Shown here piece by piece: positions 1 to 8,739 of a stretch of DNA of 13,814 nt. Under the pieces are notes generated by a model. The model was not told the origin of the DNA, searched no databases, and saw nothing but the letters and a program-made list of their open reading frames with translations. This DNA is from a virus (Duplodnaviria; Heunggongvirae; Uroviricota; Caudoviricetes). The stretch lies in the IMG/VR virus record IMGVR_UViG_641736163_000006. One strand, written 5' to 3'. The number at the start of each line of letters is the position of its first letter. The first letter of the stretch is position 1. Made by a program: the position numbers and the translations under genes.

Positions 1-2913
1 TTAATTTCGTTTCAGATTAGCCAACGCTCGCAAAGGCCGCCTTTCCAGCTCGAATGTATCAATGAATCGCAATGAGGATCTGTCATCGATGAGTCCCAAT
101 GAGTCAATCAGCGCTTTACGCTCAGGTTCTCTCCATTGCCACAGGGGATGTGTAACGACTGCGCGCCAGAGTTCTTTTCCATCCTGAATTTCGGTAAGGA
201 CCGGTAATGAGTGCTCTTTTGACAATTTGATGGTTCCAGGTCGTAACGCCTCGACGTCTTCCGCCAGCTCAAATGCCCTGTCTCGCCACCCGACCATTTC
301 AGGATGAATCCAGTCATTGTCGTTCAAGCCGCAGGCGAATTCAGGTACTACCATTGCCCGTAAGTAGGCTATGCCTAAACGCCAGTCCAGTAAGCCGTGG
401 TACCGGCGGTTGCCATAACGTTGTATGCACTTGTAACAAGCAGTTTGGCATTGTGCGGGATGATCATTACTCAAGAAATCGACCATCGGCCAGTCGCTCT
501 TATTGTTCAGGATTTCATCCAGTAATGTGGCTACCAATGGAGGGTCGCCAGCAACCGATGGTTCGGCAAGCCGTCGGCATAATCCTGAACCGTTGATCAA
601 CGCGTCGGCGATTTGCAATATCGGTTTGCCGAAGTGCAACCGGGGTTCAAGCGTTTCGAACTCGTCTGGCGATACATCCAGATGGAGCGCGGCTTTATGC
701 GTTAATATTTGAGTCGCGCTGATAGCCGCCGCTCGCGTAGGCAAATTCATATATTCGCCGTATCTGGCGACCATATTCAGATTAAGGCGTTCATCGAATT
801 GCATTAACTCCAGGTGAAGCGACTCCGTCTCTTTGCTTGATACAAGCCCAAAGCTTTTCTTCTCTCCGGTGCACCGCCATCTAAAATTATTGCGCAGTCC
901 AGCCCAGTTTGAATCAATCGCCTGACTTCCTTTAATCGGCGATCGGTAGGTAGCTAAAGGAATCGGCACCTTTTGATCGCTCGCCAAATCAACGGTAAAG
1001 CGCTCTCCTTCTTTCTCCCCATTAATGGGCCCATCGTTAAGACGCAAAATAGTAACGCCGCCGCGCCGTACGATAAAAGAACCGCAACTTTCTGAGGCTC
1101 CTGTATGCAATACGGTCGCCGTAGTTTTTAACGACATACGGGTAAAGCTGTCCATCTCGTCCTTTGGCTCAAAATCTGTGCGGAAAGCGGCAGGCGTGAT
1201 ATAGAGTTCGAATTCGTCCGGGCTGATCGGCGTATCGCAATCCTTGCAGTTAATGTCACTATCAGGTTGACTTTGCTCCAGCTTTGCCGAACCGCATGCC
1301 GGACAAATCGCGACATAGTGACTCGATTCCAGCCATGAACATACCGTCGAGAGATCTGATACACGGTTGTCCTGGACCTGGGGTTCCCGATAATTGCCGG
1401 TGAAGCCGATCACCTCATGCTTTTTCTTATCCTTGATCAATACCGAACCAGGAGCATACTCAAAAACCGCAAGGTCAAGATCGCGATCCATCGTTGACCA
1501 TTCGTATTCGGTTTGGTCATTCGCACCTTTTGTTTTGCGTAATCCCAGATAAAGGTTGCGTACCCGAGTCGGCATTCCATACATCGGCAATAGCCCTCGC
1601 TCAGCCAGAAAACAAGCAAGCCCTGTATTATCGTCAGGAGCGGAAGTTCCCAATCCCGCGATTTCTTCGATTATTTTTTCAGCGTTGATTGCGGAATAAA
1701 GGCGTTGGCGTTGACCGGGGGCGAACGTTGCGGCTTCGATAAAACGCTCACGTATATTCTGAGTCGCCTCCAGCGCGCTGTACAATAGTTTGGCCCAGTC
1801 AGCTTTATCATCATGATAGTAATCATGCGTTGAAACATATTCGCCATGAATATCAGGCGGTACGAGTTTATCGCCAGGGAATGTTATTTTGTTCTTACGG
1901 CATTCTTCACGCAGAAGATTAAATGCGCTTCTGAGCCAAATTTTCCGCAGAAGTCTTTTGGGTATATCATCATGATCGACCGCCAGGAAGGGCGGCGGCG
2001 GCGGATCGCCGGTGATCGCGTGAGGGTGTGCGAAATAGTAAGCATCATGAGTACGCCCGCGACAAAACGTGATAACGAAAGAAAATGCCTGGCCGCGTCG
2101 TCCGGCGCGACCGACGCGCTGCTGGTAATTAAATCGCTGGGGCGGCATGTTGGCCTGATAAACTGACTGAAGCGAACCGATATCAATACCGACTTCCATC
2201 GTTGTGGTAACGGCAAGCATATCGATTTCCGCATCCAGTTTTTCAAGTTCGCTCATCTTATCGACGAAAATCCCCTTGAATTTACGCAACCGCTCGGAAA
2301 AATCATCCGTTTGCCCGGTCAATTCTTCGACGTTCAACCGGAAACGTTTAACACCATCTCGTTCCCCGCGCACGATGCGTTTGCCAAGAAAATTGTCTTC
2401 CCATAGCTTTTCAACGACGCCGCTGGGTTCAATATTGAGCGGATTTACGCAACGGGTACAATGCTTAAACCCTAAATGTAAGTGAATTCGTCCGCAGTTG
2501 CTGCATTGCCAGTAATGATCGCCAGGTTTAGCGACCTTAAGAAACAATTTGCCGATACTAATTAATCCCGCCGTATGTTTCAGATCAGCAAACTGCTTTA
2601 AGATACTCGTCAGACCTTCCTGATAGAGGTTATCGCCGAATAAAACTCTGGCGACGCGCTTAACTTTCTCTTTGTCGACATTCGCTCCGACATGCCAGTC
2701 CCGGGTGCGGCTGGCGTCGAAATATTTATTTTCCTTAACGCGATAGACGCCGGAAAACACCCTCAGCCACGCATCGAGTTGCGGCATATCATCTTTACCA
2801 GCGATGCACGGATACGCCAGTCCAGTTTCTTCCAGCGCGAAAAAGATATTGGCGAAAATTACGTCGTCTATCAGTTCAAATTGATCATCGAATATTTTCG
2901 TTTTTATCTTCAT
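1..2913 (-). CDS. 5'-truncated SF2 helicase: C-terminal RecA-like domain plus long Zn-ribbon / DUF1998(MrfA)-like tail; defense-associated helicase remnant (DruE/MrfA-like, family not verified)
   Basis: 970-aa ORF with stop at 1-3. Helicase motif V (TTTMEVGIDIG) and motif VI (QRVGRAGRRGQ) lie about 235-275 aa from the Met. CxxC...CxxC clusters occur at WQCSNCGRIHLHLGFKHCTRC and CPACG...CKDC, and the tail has CQTACYKC...LDWRLG. No Walker A (GxxxxGK[ST]) or DExH motif anywhere, so the ATPase RecA1 domain is missing. The minus-strand frame stays open from 2913 up to 3099 across the IS1 junction, and there is no SD before the ATG at 2913. Confidence 0.6.
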   Translation of the reverse strand: MKIKTKIFDDQFELIDDVIFANIFFALEETGLAYPCIAGKDDMPQLDAWLRVFSGVYRVKENKYFDASRTRDWHVGANVDKEKVKRVARVLFGDNLYQEGLTSILKQFADLKHTAGLISIGKLFLKVAKPGDHYWQCSNCGRIHLHLGFKHCTRCVNPLNIEPSGVVEKLWEDNFLGKRIVRGERDGVKRFRLNVEELTGQTDDFSERLRKFKGIFVDKMSELEKLDAEIDMLAVTTTMEVGIDIGSLQSVYQANMPPQRFNYQQRVGRAGRRGQAFSFVITFCRGRTHDAYYFAHPHAITGDPPPPPFLAVDHDDIPKRLLRKIWLRSAFNLLREECRKNKITFPGDKLVPPDIHGEYVSTHDYYHDDKADWAKLLYSALEATQNIRERFIEAATFAPGQRQRLYSAINAEKIIEEIAGLGTSAPDDNTGLACFLAERGLLPMYGMPTRVRNLYLGLRKTKGANDQTEYEWSTMDRDLDLAVFEYAPGSVLIKDKKKHEVIGFTGNYREPQVQDNRVSDLSTVCSWLESSHYVAICPACGSAKLEQSQPDSDINCKDCDTPISPDEFELYITPAAFRTDFEPKDEMDSFTRMSLKTTATVLHTGASESCGSFIVRRGGVTILRLNDGPINGEKEGERFTVDLASDQKVPIPLATYRSPIKGSQAIDSNWAGLRNNFRWRCTGEKKSFGLVSSKETESLHLELMQFDERLNLNMVARYGEYMNLPTRAAAISATQILTHKAALHLDVSPDEFETLEPRLHFGKPILQIADALINGSGLCRRLAEPSVAGDPPLVATLLDEILNNKSDWPMVDFLSNDHPAQCQTACYKCIQRYGNRRYHGLLDWRLGIAYLRAMVVPEFACGLNDNDWIHPEMVGWRDRAFELAEDVEALRPGTIKLSKEHSLPVLTEIQDGKELWRAVVTHPLWQWREPERKALIDSLGLIDDRSSLRFIDTFELERRPLRALANLKRN

Positions 2914-3066
2914 TTTTTCAGAAGAAGGAAGTCTTTCACTGTATTTAATGATTTCATCTTCTTTAATGAAATTAGCATACCAAACAGTACTATCATCTTC
3001 TTCTGAATTAGGGTGATGCTGCCAACTTACTGATTTAGTGTATGATGGTGTTTTTGAGGTGCTCCA

Positions 3067-3342
3067 GTGGCTTCTGTTTCTATTAGCTGTCCCTCCTGTT
3101 CAGCTACTGACGGGGTGGTGCGTAACGGCAAAAGCACCGCCGGACATCAGCGCTATCTCTGCTCTCACTGCCGTAAAACATGGCAACTGCAGTTCACTTA
3201 CACCGCTTCTCAACCCGGTACGCACCAGAAAATCATTGATATGGCCATGAATGGCGTTGGATGCCGGGCAACTGCCCGCATTATGGGCGTTGGCCTCAAC
3301 ACGATTTTACGTCACTTAAAAAACTCAGGCCGCAGTCGGTAA
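3067..3342 (+). CDS. insA: IS1 InsA (transposition inhibitor / N-terminal part of InsAB' transposase)
   Basis: 91-aa product [22 protein letters not shown]...LKNSGRSR recognised as IS1 InsA; GTG start. Confidence 0.9.
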
Positions 3343-3764
3343 CCTCGCGCATACAGCCGGGCAGTGACGTCATCGTCTGCGCGGAAATGGACGAACAGTG
3401 GGGCTATGTCGGGGCTAAATCGCGCCAGCGCTGGCTGTTTTACGCGTATGACAGTCTCCGGAAGACGGTTGTTGCGCACGTATTCGGTGAACGCACTATG
3501 GCGACGCTGGGGCATCTTATGAGCCTGCTGTCACCCTTTGACGTGGTGATATGGATGACGGATGGCTGGCCGCTGTATGAATCCCGCCTGAAGGGAAAGC
3601 TGCACGTAATCAGCAAGCGATATACGCAGCGAATTGAGCGGCATAACCTGAATCTGAGGCAGCACCTGGCACGGCTGGGACGGAAGTCGCTGTCGTTCTC
3701 AAAATCGGTGGAGCTGCATGACAAAGTCATCGGGCATTATCTGAACATAAAACACTATCAATAA
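3261..3764 (+). CDS. insB: IS1 InsB reading frame (expressed as InsAB' fusion by -1 frameshift)
   Basis: 167-aa frame ending ...HYLNIKHYQ, overlapping the insA 3' end in the -1 frame, as in IS1. Confidence 0.9.
3318..3324 (+). promoter_or_regulatory. A6C slippery heptamer for programmed -1 ribosomal frameshift (insA to insB)
   Basis: AAAAAAC lies within the insA/insB overlap (sequence TTAAAAAACTC), the established IS1 frameshift site. Confidence 0.7.
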
Positions 3765-3779
3765 GTTGGAGTCATTACC

Positions 3780-5016
3780 TAAGGAGTTGATTGGCAAATT
3801 TCGTTTATTGCCGAAAAAATTAACCACAAAGGAAAAAGATGAATCCAAAAATGGACACGTTCATTTTTCTAACCCTAAACGAGCAGCCGACCATTTATTT
3901 AAGAATTTTGATCTGATACCAGAGTTTCGTATTATTGGCGACTTCCCGGTTGATAGTCACATTATCTCTGCGCTATGGATTAACATGGTCGGGCATAAAT
4001 TTGATGCCAGCTTAGATAACTGTTGCTATGGCGCGCGGCTAAAACGTATTCGTAATGATGAATTGTTTAGCAATGAGCAGGATAATCCATTCCATATCAG
4101 TGCTGTGGGTTCTTTTAGCTCCTACTTCCAGCCCTACCAAAAATGGCGTGGTGATGGCTTAAAAGCTATACGTGACGAACTGGAAAAAGATCACGATATT
4201 ATCGCCGCTTCACTGGATTTAAAAAGTTACTATCATTTTATTGATCCACTGGCTATAACTTCTGACGATCTCTGTGACGCGCTAAACGTAAAACTGACTG
4301 AGGATGAAAAAGCGTTTACTGAACAGTTAGCAATATTCTTAAAGCACTGGTCTGACGGCGCAGCAACGTTTGGAAAGAAAATAGCGTACAAAACACCAGT
4401 TATTAATGGTGGTCTGGTCATTGGATTGACGGCCAGTCGGATCATATCTAATATACTGCTACACCAGTGGGATAAATTAGTCATTGAGAAACTATCGCCG
4501 ATCCACTACGGTCGTTATGTCGATGATATGTTCCTCGTGATACGCGATACAGGTAAAATTACTAATAATCACGAATTTATGTTATTGCTGCAAGAGCGGC
4601 TTGGCAACGATTGCATTAGCCAGAAAAACGGGCAAGAACAGATATGGCAAATACAGCAGGGTGAGCAGTTTCAGGGTAAGACTACCATCCAGTTACAATC
4701 CGATAAGCAAAAACTTTTCGTGCTTCAGGGGCGGGCGGGAATAGACCTGCTCGACAGTATCGAAAAGGAGATCTACGAGCTTTCTAGTGAACACCGCTTG
4801 ATGCCTTCACCGGATCAACTGGAACACTCCACCGCGGCTAAAGTCCTTTCCGCTGCCGGTAGCGTGGGTGAAAATGCCGATACTCTGCGCCGTGCGGATG
4901 GATTAACCATCCGTCGTTTGGGCTGGTCACTGCAATTACGCTACGTTGAAACACTGGCGCGAGATCTGCCTCCAGGTGAATGGAAAGAACAGCGGGAAGA
5001 GTTTTATCAGTTTGCC
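3780..5016 (+). pseudogene. UG/Abi-type reverse transcriptase (DRT1-like), RT-domain fragment; 5' end removed at the IS1-A junction, 3' end interrupted by IS1-B
   Basis: RT motif A (IIAASLDLKSYYHFID), motif B-like (INGGLVIGLTASRIISNILL) and motif C (HYGRYVDDMFLV; YVDD at 4516-4527). The ORF-track start at 3766 is a TTG inside the IS1 end; the first native base is 3780 and no plausible native start follows. Confidence 0.75.
5008..5016 (+). repeat. Target-site duplication (left copy) of IS1 copy B: CAGTTTGCC
   Basis: Identical 9-mer directly flanks both ends of IS1-B (5008-5016 and 5785-5793). Confidence 0.85.
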
Positions 5017-5071
5017 GGTGATGCTGCCAACTTACTGATTTAGTGTATGATGGTGTTTTTGAGGTGCTCCA

Positions 5072-5347
5072 GTGGCTTCTGTTTCTATTAGCTGTCCCTC
5101 CTGTTCAGCTACTGACGGGGTGGTGCGTAACGGCAAAAGCACCGCCGGACATCAGCGCTATCTCTGCTCTCACTGCCGTAAAACATGGCAACTGCAGTTC
5201 ACTTACACCGCTTCTCAACCCGGTACGCACCAGAAAATCATTGATATGGCCATGAATGGCGTTGGATGCCGGGCAACTGCCCGCATTATGGGCGTTGGCC
5301 TCAACACGATTTTACGTCACTTAAAAAACTCAGGCCGCAGTCGGTAA
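5072..5347 (+). CDS. insA: IS1 InsA (copy B)
   Basis: Protein identical to copy A InsA. Confidence 0.9.
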
Positions 5348-5769
5348 CCTCGCGCATACAGCCGGGCAGTGACGTCATCGTCTGCGCGGAAATGGACGAA
5401 CAGTGGGGCTATGTCGGGGCTAAATCGCGCCAGCGCTGGCTGTTTTACGCGTATGACAGTCTCCGGAAGACGGTTGTTGCGCACGTATTCGGTGAACGCA
5501 CTATGGCGACGCTGGGGCATCTTATGAGCCTGCTGTCACCCTTTGACGTGGTGATATGGATGACGGATGGCTGGCCGCTGTATGAATCCCGCCTGAAGGG
5601 AAAGCTGCACGTAATCAGCAAGCGATATACGCAGCGAATTGAGCGGCATAACCTGAATCTGAGGCAGCACCTGGCACGGCTGGGACGGAAGTCGCTGTCG
5701 TTCTCAAAATCGGTGGAGCTGCATGACAAAGTCATCGGGCATTATCTGAACATAAAACACTATCAATAA
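5266..5769 (+). CDS. insB: IS1 InsB reading frame (copy B)
   Basis: Protein identical to copy A InsB. Confidence 0.9.
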
Positions 5770-5784
5770 GTTGGAGTCATTACC

Positions 5785-5793
5785 CAGTTTGCC
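5785..5793 (+). repeat. Target-site duplication (right copy) of IS1 copy B: CAGTTTGCC
   Basis: See the left copy at 5008-5016. Confidence 0.85.
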
Positions 5794-7566
5794 TACAACC
5801 ATATTCTTAGGGCCGATAATCTATTTGCACATTTTAGTTATCTGCCAAGGTTGCTTGGCTTTGCTATCAGTATGAATGAATGGCAGCACGCGGAAAAAAT
5901 TGTACTTAAAGCTTACGAATCCATCAATCTGCTGGCCTCGGTGATTACCTCAGGCAAGGAAGTGACTATAAATGGTTGCAAAACTCGAGCAGTAAATGAT
6001 CTTTGGCGTTGTATAAAAGGCACCTTAAGCTGGCTATTTGTTGATGCAGCAACACGATATTACAATCCTGATAAATTATTTCTTGATAAACATTCCAAGA
6101 AAGAAGAGTGTCTTGCGGATACATTTTTTAATCATATTTCACAAAGCCTGACAAACCTAAAGGATTTACTGGATCTTCGTTTTGATTCAGCAGACTTTTA
6201 TTTAAAAGTGCCATTGGTAGCTCGGGCTGACTTAGCAAAAGAACCTTATAAACAGATCGTAAAGAGTCAGTCCGCAGAAAAACTTGTTAATCAGCGTGAT
6301 AGTAAAAAAGAAGCTAAAATACTGAAATTAATGAGCACTTCATCGCTTATTGATATTGATGTTATTAAGCTATTTTTGAAATCAACCAAGAATACCCGAC
6401 TGGAAAAAGTGGCTAAAGGAAATCGTAAGAATGAGAGTTACTTACCTTACATTTTCCCTACACGTCCTTTAACACCCGCTGAAATATCTGAACTGGCCCC
6501 CGAATGTGTTGGATTACCCTCCAGATACGACAAAAACTCAGATGGAAGGCCGTCCACTATTTGGGCCAAATATACGCAAGCATTACGTGGAGTATGGATC
6601 AAACCGACATTGCTGGCATCGGAGCAAGACTCAGACGAAGCGACAAAAACAGTTCGGCCTAAGAAATTCATTCATATTGGTACAGACAGGAAACATAAAA
6701 TTGTCGTTGCGCTAACCAGCATCAAAACCGATGAGGACGACTGGGCTAAAATGGCCTGTAACAAATCTAACCTGTCCCGTTCAAGGTATCAGCGGATTTC
6801 TGAACTGGTTAATGCAACATTGAAACTGTCGCCTAAACCCGATTATGTTTTATTCCCTGAGCTTTCAATTCCGTTACGTTGGGTTAACAGTATTGCCGAT
6901 CGTTTGAGTTCGGCGGGTATCAGTCTGATTGCGGGGACGGAATACCGCCACTTTGACGATAATCAACTGAAGAGTGAAGCAGTGCTTGTCCTGTCAGATA
7001 ACCGACTCGGCTATCCGGCGAGTGTCAAAATATGGCAACCCAAGCTGGAACCCGCTGTAGGTGAAGATGAGGCATTGTTTTCAACGTTTGGTAAGTCCTG
7101 GGCATTTTCAACGCTTAATCCGAAACATCGTAAACCTGTATATATTCATCACGGCGTCAATTTTGGCGTTATGATTTGCTCTGAACTCCAGAACAGCAAA
7201 GCAAGGATCCGGTTTCAGGGCGCGGTCGACGCATTGATGGTATTGAGCTGGAATAAAGATCTGGATACGTTTGCATCGTTGATTGAATCAGCAGCGCTGG
7301 ATGTTCATGCCTATACCATCTTGGTGAATAACCGAAAATATGGCGACAGCCGGGTACGTTCTCCGGCAAAAGAATCCTTTATGCGCGATATTGCCCGCGT
7401 GAAGGGCGGTGATAATGACTTTGTGGTTGCTGCAACGCTGGATATCGATGCGTTAAGGGCATTCCAGAGCAGGGCAAAACGCTGGTCTAAAGATGGCGAT
7501 AAATTCAAGCCATTGCCTGAAGGATTCCAGTTGGCAAAGAATCGTAAAAAACTACCGCCAAAATAA
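5785..7566 (+). pseudogene. 3' portion of the same RT gene: helical linker plus C-terminal nitrilase-like (C-N hydrolase) domain
   Basis: Frame continues from the 3780-5016 fragment once IS1-B and one duplication copy (777 bp, a multiple of 3) are removed. Nitrilase-like triad: E in YVLFPELSIP (6859-6861), K in SVKIWQPKLEP, C in GVNFGVMICSELQ (7177-7179). Stop at 7564-7566. Confidence 0.65.
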
Positions 7567-7692
7567 GAAACTGATTTCGTTATTATAGATCAGGGTATTT
7601 TTGCGTGAGAGGCCGGAAAACAGGATGTCGCCCCTGTGTAAGTTCACAGAGATATTGCAATTGCCTCCGGATAAGTAAGGGGAGATTGCACT

Positions 7693-8739
7693 ATGCAAAT
7701 GCAGCATCTGATGGTTGGCTATCCTAAGTACTACCAAACGGCCGATTATGCGTTGAGGCTTTCAGTGATGGCTGATATAGCAACAATGAGAATGAAGGCT
7801 CTGCACTTCTGGGATAAACACGGTATTTCTGCAGCTTCTGAAGCCTTTGGCGTGTCCTGCCGCACGCTTTACTGGTGGCGTCAGTTACTGAACAAGGAAG
7901 GACCTGAGGGGCTAATCCCGCACAGTAAGGCACCTCTGGTGCGACGAAAAAAACACTGGCATCCCGATGTGCTGAAAGAGATTCGACGCCTCAGGACAGA
8001 GCTGCCGAACCTCGGTAAAGAGCAGATTTTTGTTCGCCTGAAGCCCTGGTGCGAACAGCGCTATCTGGCCTGTCCGAGTGTTTCCACCATCGGCAGAATG
8101 ATCGCTGCCGCACATGATAAAATGCGGATGATACCTGTGCGTCTGGGATCGCGGGGGAAGGCACTGCTTGTCAAAAAGCGGTCTGCCAAACCCCGCAGGC
8201 CAAAGCACTCCCGCCCGGTAAAGACAGGTGAGCTCATTGGGATGGACGCCATTGAGCTCAGAATGGGCGAACTGCGTCGCTATGTCATCACCATGATCGA
8301 CGAATGCAGCAATTACGCGCTGGCGCTGGCTGTGCCGTCACTCAACAGTGATATCGTCAATCACTTCTTCAGCCGCGCAGCCCGGTTGTTCCCGGTCGGT
8401 ATCAGCCAGATAATCACAGATAATGGAAAAGAGTTCCTGGGAAACTTCGACAAAACGCTGCAGGAAGCCGCTATCAAACACCTCTGGACCTATCCCTACA
8501 CGCCAAAAATGAACGCTATCTGTGAACGTTTTAACCGGACGTTAAGAGAGCAGTTTATTGAATTTAATGAGATTTTACTCTTTGAAGATCTGGCGCTATT
8601 TAACCAGAAGCTGGCGGAATATCTGGTGCTGTATAACAGCAAAAGACCCCACAAGGCGCTCGCACTAATGACGCCCGTGGAATATATTTTAAAAGAGAAT
8701 AAAAATTGCAATATGTGGTGGACCCATACATCTCCTTGA
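7693..8739 (+). CDS. DDE-type transposase with N-terminal HTH and integrase-core (rve-like) domain; IS481-family-like
   Basis: 348-aa ORF with SD GGGGAG 8 nt upstream. Single frame carrying an HTH (GVSCRTLYWWRQ) and DDE-like signatures (MIDECS ... ITDNGKEF ... ICERFNRTLREQ), an architecture typical of IS481-family transposases. Element ends not identified. Confidence 0.75.
   Translation: MQMQHLMVGYPKYYQTADYALRLSVMADIATMRMKALHFWDKHGISAASEAFGVSCRTLYWWRQLLNKEGPEGLIPHSKAPLVRRKKHWHPDVLKEIRRLRTELPNLGKEQIFVRLKPWCEQRYLACPSVSTIGRMIAAAHDKMRMIPVRLGSRGKALLVKKRSAKPRRPKHSRPVKTGELIGMDAIELRMGELRRYVITMIDECSNYALALAVPSLNSDIVNHFFSRAARLFPVGISQIITDNGKEFLGNFDKTLQEAAIKHLWTYPYTPKMNAICERFNRTLREQFIEFNEILLFEDLALFNQKLAEYLVLYNSKRPHKALALMTPVEYILKENKNCNMWWTHTSP

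Follow-up and report, generated by a model that had tools for sequence, protein, structure and literature searches.

An IS1 copy without a target-site duplication as the probable scar of a ~13.4-kb deletion in a defence island of Escherichia albertii

We analysed a DNA stretch of 13,814 nucleotides (hereafter the window), recorded as a tailed-phage sequence (IMGVR_UViG_641736163_000006), which carries two copies of the insertion sequence (IS) IS1. The first, IS1 A, lies between the interiors of two genes: druE, which encodes the helicase of a Druantia type II defence system, and a reverse transcriptase (RT) gene. Comparison with IS1-free strains indicates that IS1 A is the scar of a loss of ~13.4 kb from a chromosomal defence island in the TW07627 / NBRC 107761 lineage of Escherichia albertii. 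That an IS1-associated deletion of this interval took place is, on the alignments described below, almost certain. The window matches the assemblies of E. albertii TW07627 (GCA_000155105.1) and NBRC 107761 = DSM 17582 (GCA_022833075.1), in records of 4.67 Mb and 4.69 Mb. Over 12.9 kb that take in the four IS1 junctions, neither differs from the window, and a third assembly has a contig with the left junction of IS1 A.

IS1 A and the interval missing from the window

IS1-free versions of the locus (L018-L021) were found through the E. albertii DruM protein (P0281). Three of them, L018, L019 and L020, match both flanks of IS1 A at 99.8-99.9% nucleotide identity, with order and orientation kept. 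Window positions 426-3011 correspond to L018_rc 1-2586 (99.92% identity), 3780-5016 to L018_rc 15949-17185 (99.76%) and 5785-7635 to L018_rc 17177-19027 (99.78%). Between the two flanks of IS1 A these loci contain DNA that is absent from the window. Its length is 13,362 bp in L018, whereas in L019, at 5289-18709, it measures 13,421 bp; 55 of the 59 bp by which the L018 interval is shorter fall in druG. The window therefore shows flanks collinear with an IS-free relative, a gap filled by one intact IS, breakpoints at the IS termini and no target-site duplication. As the flanks keep their ancestral order and orientation and only the intervening DNA is missing, the rearrangement is a deletion and not an inversion.

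In the orientation of the window, the IS1-free island begins, possibly after vsr, with the leftward genes druE, druG, druF and druM, followed by a rightward DUF4917 gene (PADLOC PDC-S21), an open reading frame (ORF) of 72 residues and a rightward HTH_35 gene. It continues with the leftward genes abiEii and abiEi, a 316-bp intergenic region and the rightward RT gene. The breakpoint in druE lies after the first base of codon 944 (TCT), with a loss of 2,830 nt (codons 1-943 and part of 944), and that in the RT gene after the second base of codon 68 (AAT), with a loss of 203 nt (codons 1-67 and part of 68). Besides these two gene ends, seven annotated genes (druG, druF, druM, DUF4917/PDC-S21, HTH_35, abiEii and abiEi), the 72-residue ORF and the intergenic region between abiEi and the RT gene are missing. 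The ancestral junctions read ...CTGAATTAG|AACGATACT... and ...CAGCAGCAA|TAAGGAGTT...; comparison of the two reveals no duplication, no microhomology and no bases in common, and the breakpoints coincide with the IS1 termini to the base.

Other genomes are less informative. Complete E. coli genomes contain no counterpart of the druE flank, only an RT allele of 93-94% identity next to abiE at thrW, and are thus unable to supply the ancestral junction. A scan of genome contigs returned only relatives of 81-86% identity (L005, L006). Among the IS1-free strains, L018 (GCA_020443845.1, 13806-15581) and L019 (13806-15860) differ in druG, which encodes 591 and 684 residues, respectively, and is 55 bp shorter at a tandem repeat in L018. 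The Druantia system of the island-intact L018 strain may therefore also be defective.

IS1 A is a complete element of 768 bp on the plus strand (3012-3779). Its terminal inverted repeats agree at 18 of 23 positions (GGTGATGCTGCCAACTTACTGAT versus GGTAATGACTCCAACTTATTGAT). insA (3067-3342, 91 residues) is overlapped by insB' (3261-3764, 167 residues), with the A6C motif for -1 frameshifting, AAAAAAC, at 3318-3324, and precomputed Pfam matches comprise DDE_Tnp_IS1, Zn_ribbon_InsA and HTH_Tnp_IS1. A length of ~768 bp, imperfect inverted repeats of ~23 bp, insA/insB' with an A6C motif and the transposase domains together place it in the IS1 family. The second copy, IS1 B (5017-5784), has the same orientation and length and is identical to IS1 A at 768 of 768 positions. 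The two copies form direct repeats 2 kb apart that bracket a 1.2-kb segment of the RT gene.

The two copies differ in their flanks. The 9-mer to the left of IS1 A, CTGAATTAG (3003-3011), has no copy on the right side, and that to the right, TAAGGAGTT (3780-3788), has none on the left, so that no target-site duplication accompanies this copy. In the 25-nt flanks of IS1 A the longest common word is 4 nt and out of register. IS1 B, in contrast, is flanked by a perfect duplication (9/9) of CAGTTTGCC, at 5008-5016 (RT codons 478-480) and 5785-5793. This target is present once in the IS1-free locus, where the two matches to the window overlap by exactly these 9 bp (L018_rc 17177-17185), which proves IS1 B to be a simple insertion in the RT gene. 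An 8-9 bp duplication is thus found at IS1 B and is missing at IS1 A, where the deletion explains its absence, and IS1 B is an internal control showing what a simple insertion looks like at this locus. In the vicinity of the three IS1 sites the G+C fraction falls to 0.38-0.41, the value for the locus being 0.51. A promoter scan gave IS1's own inward promoter-like site and otherwise weak matches only, nothing convincing for read-out expression.

These results largely agree with an earlier note on this DNA, made from the window alone, which had proposed an IS1-mediated deletion on the basis of the missing duplication and of flanks that seemed to be gene interiors. Alignment to IS1-free E. albertii bears out each of these points: both genes extend into the missing 13.4 kb, and neither natural gene starts at the junction nor a cryptic 8-9 bp duplication, the two observations that the note had named as speaking against its proposal, are found. 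The range of 2914-3788 given there contains IS1 A, but also 98 nt of native druE and a 9-nt right flank. The note was right that both 5' ends had been removed and underestimated the extent of the loss, which also took a multi-system defence island. Its assumption of a shared promoter region for the helicase and RT genes does not hold, since druE is the last gene of the druM-druF-druG-druE operon and lies ~10 kb from the RT gene in the ancestor; the two were never neighbours. The divergent partner of the RT gene is abiEi, in E. coli as well.

Truncated genes on either side of IS1 A

The left flank is the 3' remnant of druE (1-3011, minus strand), which runs from the second base of codon 944 through codon 1946 to the stop codon at 1-3. 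Its 1002 native codons (3009 down to 4) encode a sequence identical at 1000 of 1002 positions to residues 945-1946 of the 1946-residue E. albertii DruE (P0123). The remnant covers positions 940-1925 of the 1928 in the PADLOC DruE2 profile. Its Pfam matches are restricted to Helicase_C and the MrfA Zn-binding domain (MZB), and the DEAD/Walker half is missing. A type II Druantia system comprises DruM, DruF, DruG and a DruE with both helicase halves; of these the window contains DruE residues 945-1946 only, while IS1-free E. albertii, L005 and L006 have the whole operon.

ORF finders start the remnant at an ATG at 2913, giving a 970-residue ORF. The methionine encoded there is internal in full-length DruE proteins (..SSEKMKIKTK..), and the stretch upstream of it (2914-3011, minus strand; 32 codons and 2 nt) is native druE coding sequence. 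The minus-strand frame is open from 3099 through the IS1 A junction, the nearest stop (3100-3102) being inside IS1. The 90% protein cluster that contains the 970-residue ORF also includes DruE proteins of 1945-1946 residues, encoded by other E. albertii strains. Partial DruE proteins with the same first residue are encoded in several further E. albertii assemblies, a pattern to be expected if contigs built from short reads end at IS1.

Many database entries for a C-terminal 'helicase-related protein' have a length of ~1000 residues, and we considered whether such a protein could be a natural stand-alone gene. This was rejected, as the homology of L005 and L007 to full-length DruE crosses the frame change (at codon ~981 in L005 and ~770 in Massilia, L007) and the E. 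albertii gene is a single ORF of 1946 codons. DruE is split into N- and C-terminal ORFs in the unrelated genomes of Enterobacteriaceae bacterium B14 and Massilia sp. MB5 (L005 7166-13007; L007 7236-13153; P0001), and probably also in Photorhabdus and a Nitrospira. In the two genomes that were checked, homology runs on past the frameshift; sequencing errors, decay of a costly gene and programmed frameshifts are candidate explanations.

The right flank is a fragment of a UG5 RT-nitrilase gene (3780-5016, plus strand), which extends from the last nucleotide of codon 68 to codon 480, includes the YVDD active-site motif and has no native start codon. Alignments with intact RTs from E. coli AR_0067 and E. 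albertii underlie this assignment. Base 3780 is the third base of codon 68, and the RT frame runs from 3781. The N-terminally intact E. albertii protein (MTYQATF...SSNKELIGKF) has 67 additional N-terminal codons. Beyond IS1 B, the 3' part of the gene (5794-7566, plus strand) contains codons 481-1070, the stop codon and a C-terminal C-N hydrolase (nitrilase) domain with an RTasNitrilase match. With IS1 B and one of its two 9-bp repeats taken out, the RT gene reads as one uninterrupted frame down to the stop at 7564-7566.

The RT sequence in the window covers positions 77-901 of the 907 in the PADLOC RT_UG5-nitrilase profile. The ancestral protein, 1070 residues in L018, is a UG5-large RT-nitrilase, matching PDLC03780 at positions 9-901 of 907 (E = 0) and RTasNitrilase. 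UG5-large belongs to the Class 3 UG/Abi reverse transcriptases, proteins of ~1000 residues or more in which the RT is fused to a C-terminal C-N hydrolase domain (PMC9226505). The RT of the window, lacking codons 1-67 and split by IS1 B, is a pseudogene of this family. The 156-residue gene downstream of the RT gene was considered as the transmembrane partner of UG5-large and rejected, as inspection of its translation showed no obvious long hydrophobic stretch.

The reading of these two frames in the earlier note stands. It had described a helicase frame running open through the junction, of which the 32 codons between 3009 and 2913 prove native, and had doubted the ATG at 2913 as a native start; DruE extends 944 codons further in relatives of 99.8% identity. 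The RT frame begins in mid-codon without a native start, as the note had it, and the TTG at 3766 that an ORF caller may use is IS1 sequence.

Routes to the deletion

IS1-mediated deletions have been known since the 1970s. For the present event, we consider it on balance probable that a single IS1 produced the loss by a transposase-driven adjacent deletion. Ordinary transposition would have placed one IS1 at one of the two breakpoints, both of which lie in locally AT-rich DNA. In a subsequent intramolecular replicative transposition, the IS1 ends would have attacked a target 13.4 kb away. One IS1 would thereby be joined to the far side of the target, and the intervening DNA would be released as a non-replicating circle and then lost. 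The outcome would be the classical IS1 'adjacent deletion'. This route is favoured because it takes two events, compared with three for a route through two IS1 insertions, and because no intermediates are seen. The 90% protein cluster that contains the C-terminal DruE fragments includes no N-terminal DruE fragment, so that no intermediate with a simple insertion in druE is apparent. The exact DruM protein of the IS1-free strains is found on no contig >1 Mb, and thus not on the 4.67-Mb and 4.69-Mb records that carry the window. Together, these two absences argue indirectly for loss of the DNA and against its relocation within the genome.

IS1 is described as causing both duplications of 8-9 bp and 'replicative deletions' (PMC12428005, citing Grindley 1978; Turlan & Chandler 1995). 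Elsewhere, a missing target-site duplication is attributed to either adjacent deletion or recombination between IS copies (PMC11708052). The second of these processes is the main competitor here, and we regard it as a real, if less probable, possibility. It supposes that IS1 inserted twice, independently and with the same orientation, at codon 944 of druE and at codon 68 of the RT gene, each time producing a 9-bp duplication, and that RecA recombination between the two copies then deleted 13.4 kb together with one IS1. The surviving IS1 would be a hybrid, bordered on the left by sequence from one insertion site and on the right by sequence from the other. Such recombination is a recognised source of absent duplications (PMC11708052) and predicts the end state that we observe: an intact IS1, unrelated 9-mers and collinear flanks. 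The region also demonstrably attracts IS1 in this orientation, as shown by the 100% identical IS1 B. The cost is an additional event, three being required where adjacent deletion needs two, and no strain and no protein fragment was found that matched an intermediate with just one of the two insertions. At codon 944 of druE, a simple insertion would give a junction reading IS1 end + CTGAATTAG + AACGATACTTATAGG, and one at RT codons 68-71 would read TTCAGCAGCAATAAGGAGTT + IS1 end. The druE-side junction did not occur in a scan of metagenome contigs, a collection that is poor in E. albertii and lends this result little weight. Moreover, IS1 A and IS1 B, which should be equally able to recombine, have not done so.

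Several points count against the single-IS1 adjacent deletion. Sequence alone cannot separate it from RecA recombination, since both leave an intact IS1 between unrelated flanks. IS1 B, which on the two-insertion route would be a third copy in the same orientation and lies 1.2 kb away, shows that the region collects IS1 insertions, and two earlier independent insertions are therefore not far-fetched. The missing intermediates are judged from few strains, the clusters having 7 and 5 members, and the absence of the deleted DNA elsewhere is indirect, coming from one exact-protein look-up.

The remaining explanations are much less probable. Inversion or translocation between distant IS1 copies, with the missing segment surviving elsewhere beside a reciprocal IS1 junction, seems very improbable to us. 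The same region did undergo an IS-mediated inversion, though via copies of an IS481-family element, and the genome was searched for the missing DNA by a single exact-protein look-up. An inversion between IS1 copies would, however, have flipped the relative orientation of the flanks, which both keep their ancestral order and orientation, and the absences of DruM from contigs >1 Mb and of an N-terminal DruE fragment from the cluster also argue against survival of the segment. We give slightly less credence still to an assembly artefact in which identical IS1 copies led to a mis-join of the druE and RT remnants. IS1 A and IS1 B are identical over 768/768 positions and 2 kb apart, and contigs from short reads end at IS1. 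Nevertheless, two assemblies that were deposited separately, one of which has a 4.69-Mb contig, agree over 12.9 kb and four junctions. A random mis-join would not yield flanks collinear with the IS1-free locus, and the DruE N-terminal half and DruM were not found in these records.

The two identical direct IS1 repeats around a 1.2-kb segment also resemble a composite transposon, in which IS1 A, the RT fragment and IS1 B would have entered druE as a unit; the chance of this is negligible. The outer flanks, CTGAATTAG and CAGTTTGCC, form no duplication, and the duplication of IS1 B sits on the two sides of IS1 B itself. The RT frame is seamless across IS1 B after one copy of the duplication is dropped, and the RT fragment and the sequence to the right of IS1 B are contiguous in IS1-free strains; these two observations refute a composite-transposon origin.

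The sequence at the RT breakpoint has a further feature. The ancestral 17 nt that were replaced by the IS1 right end resemble that terminus, at 12/17 positions in E. albertii and 13/17 in E. coli AR_0067, with an offset of 2 nt (window 3763-3779 versus L018_rc 15930-15946 and L001 8001-8015). Because of this likeness, the megablast alignment to E. coli ran on for 17 nt into IS1. The empirical background of the likeness is ~5e-4 per position, uncorrected for the small number of sites considered, and neither the druE breakpoint nor the IS1 B site shows a comparable likeness to the IS1 right end. The junction is 2 nt out of register with this similarity, and an origin by microhomology or slippage involving the right end of IS1 and the IS1-like RT sequence was therefore rejected. 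Galas, Calos and Miller are said to have reported in 1980 that IS1 prefers end-like targets, a preference that the likeness may reflect. It is conceivable, though in our view doubtful, that the RT-side endpoint was non-random, the target having been captured through this IS1-end-like 'pseudo-end', and, as a separate matter, that the one-step loss of four defence systems was selected. The likeness may equally be due to chance. If capture by a pseudo-end were both true and general, one could predict in part where IS1 deletions end in genomes.

The single-IS1 adjacent deletion that we prefer has close precedents. IS1-promoted deletions in the gal region of E. coli K-12 were reportedly described by Reif and Saedler in 1975. 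As in E. albertii, classical IS1 adjacent deletions keep a complete IS1 and extend from its terminus to an unrelated AT-rich site kilobases away, with no target duplication and with the orientation of the flanks kept. The classical deletions were selected in the laboratory, whereas the E. albertii event is natural and fixed in a wild lineage, and here the junction of the original insertion cannot be told from the far junction. Deletions by IS-IS recombination and IS150 adjacent deletions are also described in the Lenski long-term lines (PMC11708052), likewise with one IS at the centre of a large deletion and without a target-site duplication. In those lines the ancestor is known and the route can be assigned, whereas no intermediate is available for E. 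albertii. Our literature search found no paper on this particular event in E. albertii, which is a clean new instance of known, textbook IS-driven genome decay and involves no new mechanism.

Neighbouring elements and loss of defence systems

An IS481-family element (7634-8738, plus strand) begins 68 bp after the RT stop codon and is part of the context of the locus, not of the IS1 A event. A second copy, 99.8% identical and in inverted orientation, lies just left of the window (L002 13481-14585). The pair brackets vsr, the druE remnant, IS1 A, the first RT fragment, IS1 B and the second RT fragment. The ancestral target, GCCCC(T), located 68 bp after the RT stop, is split between the two copies, and a block consisting of the 156-residue gene, an HTH gene and an integrase gene, which follows the RT gene in IS1-free strains, is now inverted beyond vsr. 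The split target and the displaced block indicate that the whole segment was inverted by recombination between the two IS481-family copies. The other two IS481 flanks share no common duplication, which implies further rearrangement.

The right part of the window (9094-13814) is a lambdoid prophage, with a SIR2_2-domain gene (9094-10125, minus strand), DUF977, an O-like gene, ydaT, cro and a dicA-like repressor gene. The same prophage is integrated beside yccA/tusE in many E. coli. In TW07627 the IS481 element truncates it directly behind the SIR2 gene, and the hok, rem, rusA, Q and lysis genes are missing there. A minus-strand ORF of 339 residues (10942-11961) contains, at 11448-11563, four 23-nt direct repeats of CATCAGGCCATTTTGACCCGATG, 74-100% alike, which resemble the iterons of a replication origin within a lambda O-like gene.

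The abiEii-abiEi / UG5 RT-nitrilase trio occurs in ~260 complete E. coli genomes at ~94% nucleotide identity. In E. coli AR_0067, the sole genome examined (L001 5812-11026), it lies beside thrW/proA and without Druantia, and the E. albertii island is located near an integrase and nac/cbl. The abiE-RT module appears to move between integration hot spots.

Gene content suggests that the deletion removed or crippled four systems: Druantia II, AbiE, DUF4917/PDC-S21 and the UG5 RT-nitrilase. With druM, druF, druG and the ATPase half of druE lost, Druantia II is predicted to be nonfunctional. The RT gene appears to lack its promoter, the start codon and 67 codons, and IS1 B splits what is left of it. 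Given the truncations of druE and the RT gene and this split, both flanking ORFs are best regarded as pseudogene remnants. Immediately downstream of what remains of druE, and just outside the left end of the window, the vsr gene for a very-short-patch repair endonuclease (L002 13002-13409) is still present. The DruM cytosine methyltransferase, presumably its partner, is deleted, and vsr would thus be orphaned. IS transposition into cas genes is also known to inactivate immune systems (PMC10359306). There, too, an IS abolishes defence against phages or plasmids, but those insertions interrupt a single gene, whereas the E. albertii deletion would have affected four systems at once.

These observations bear on the annotation of this lineage. 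The deposited 970-residue 'helicase', 418/425-residue 'RNA-directed DNA polymerase' and 564-residue 'CN hydrolase domain' proteins would be pseudogene fragments, and predictions of defence systems for E. albertii TW07627 / NBRC 107761 should score the island as dead. The locus would provide a natural example, defined to the base, of one IS1 event that strips several anti-phage systems from the type-strain lineage of an emerging pathogen.

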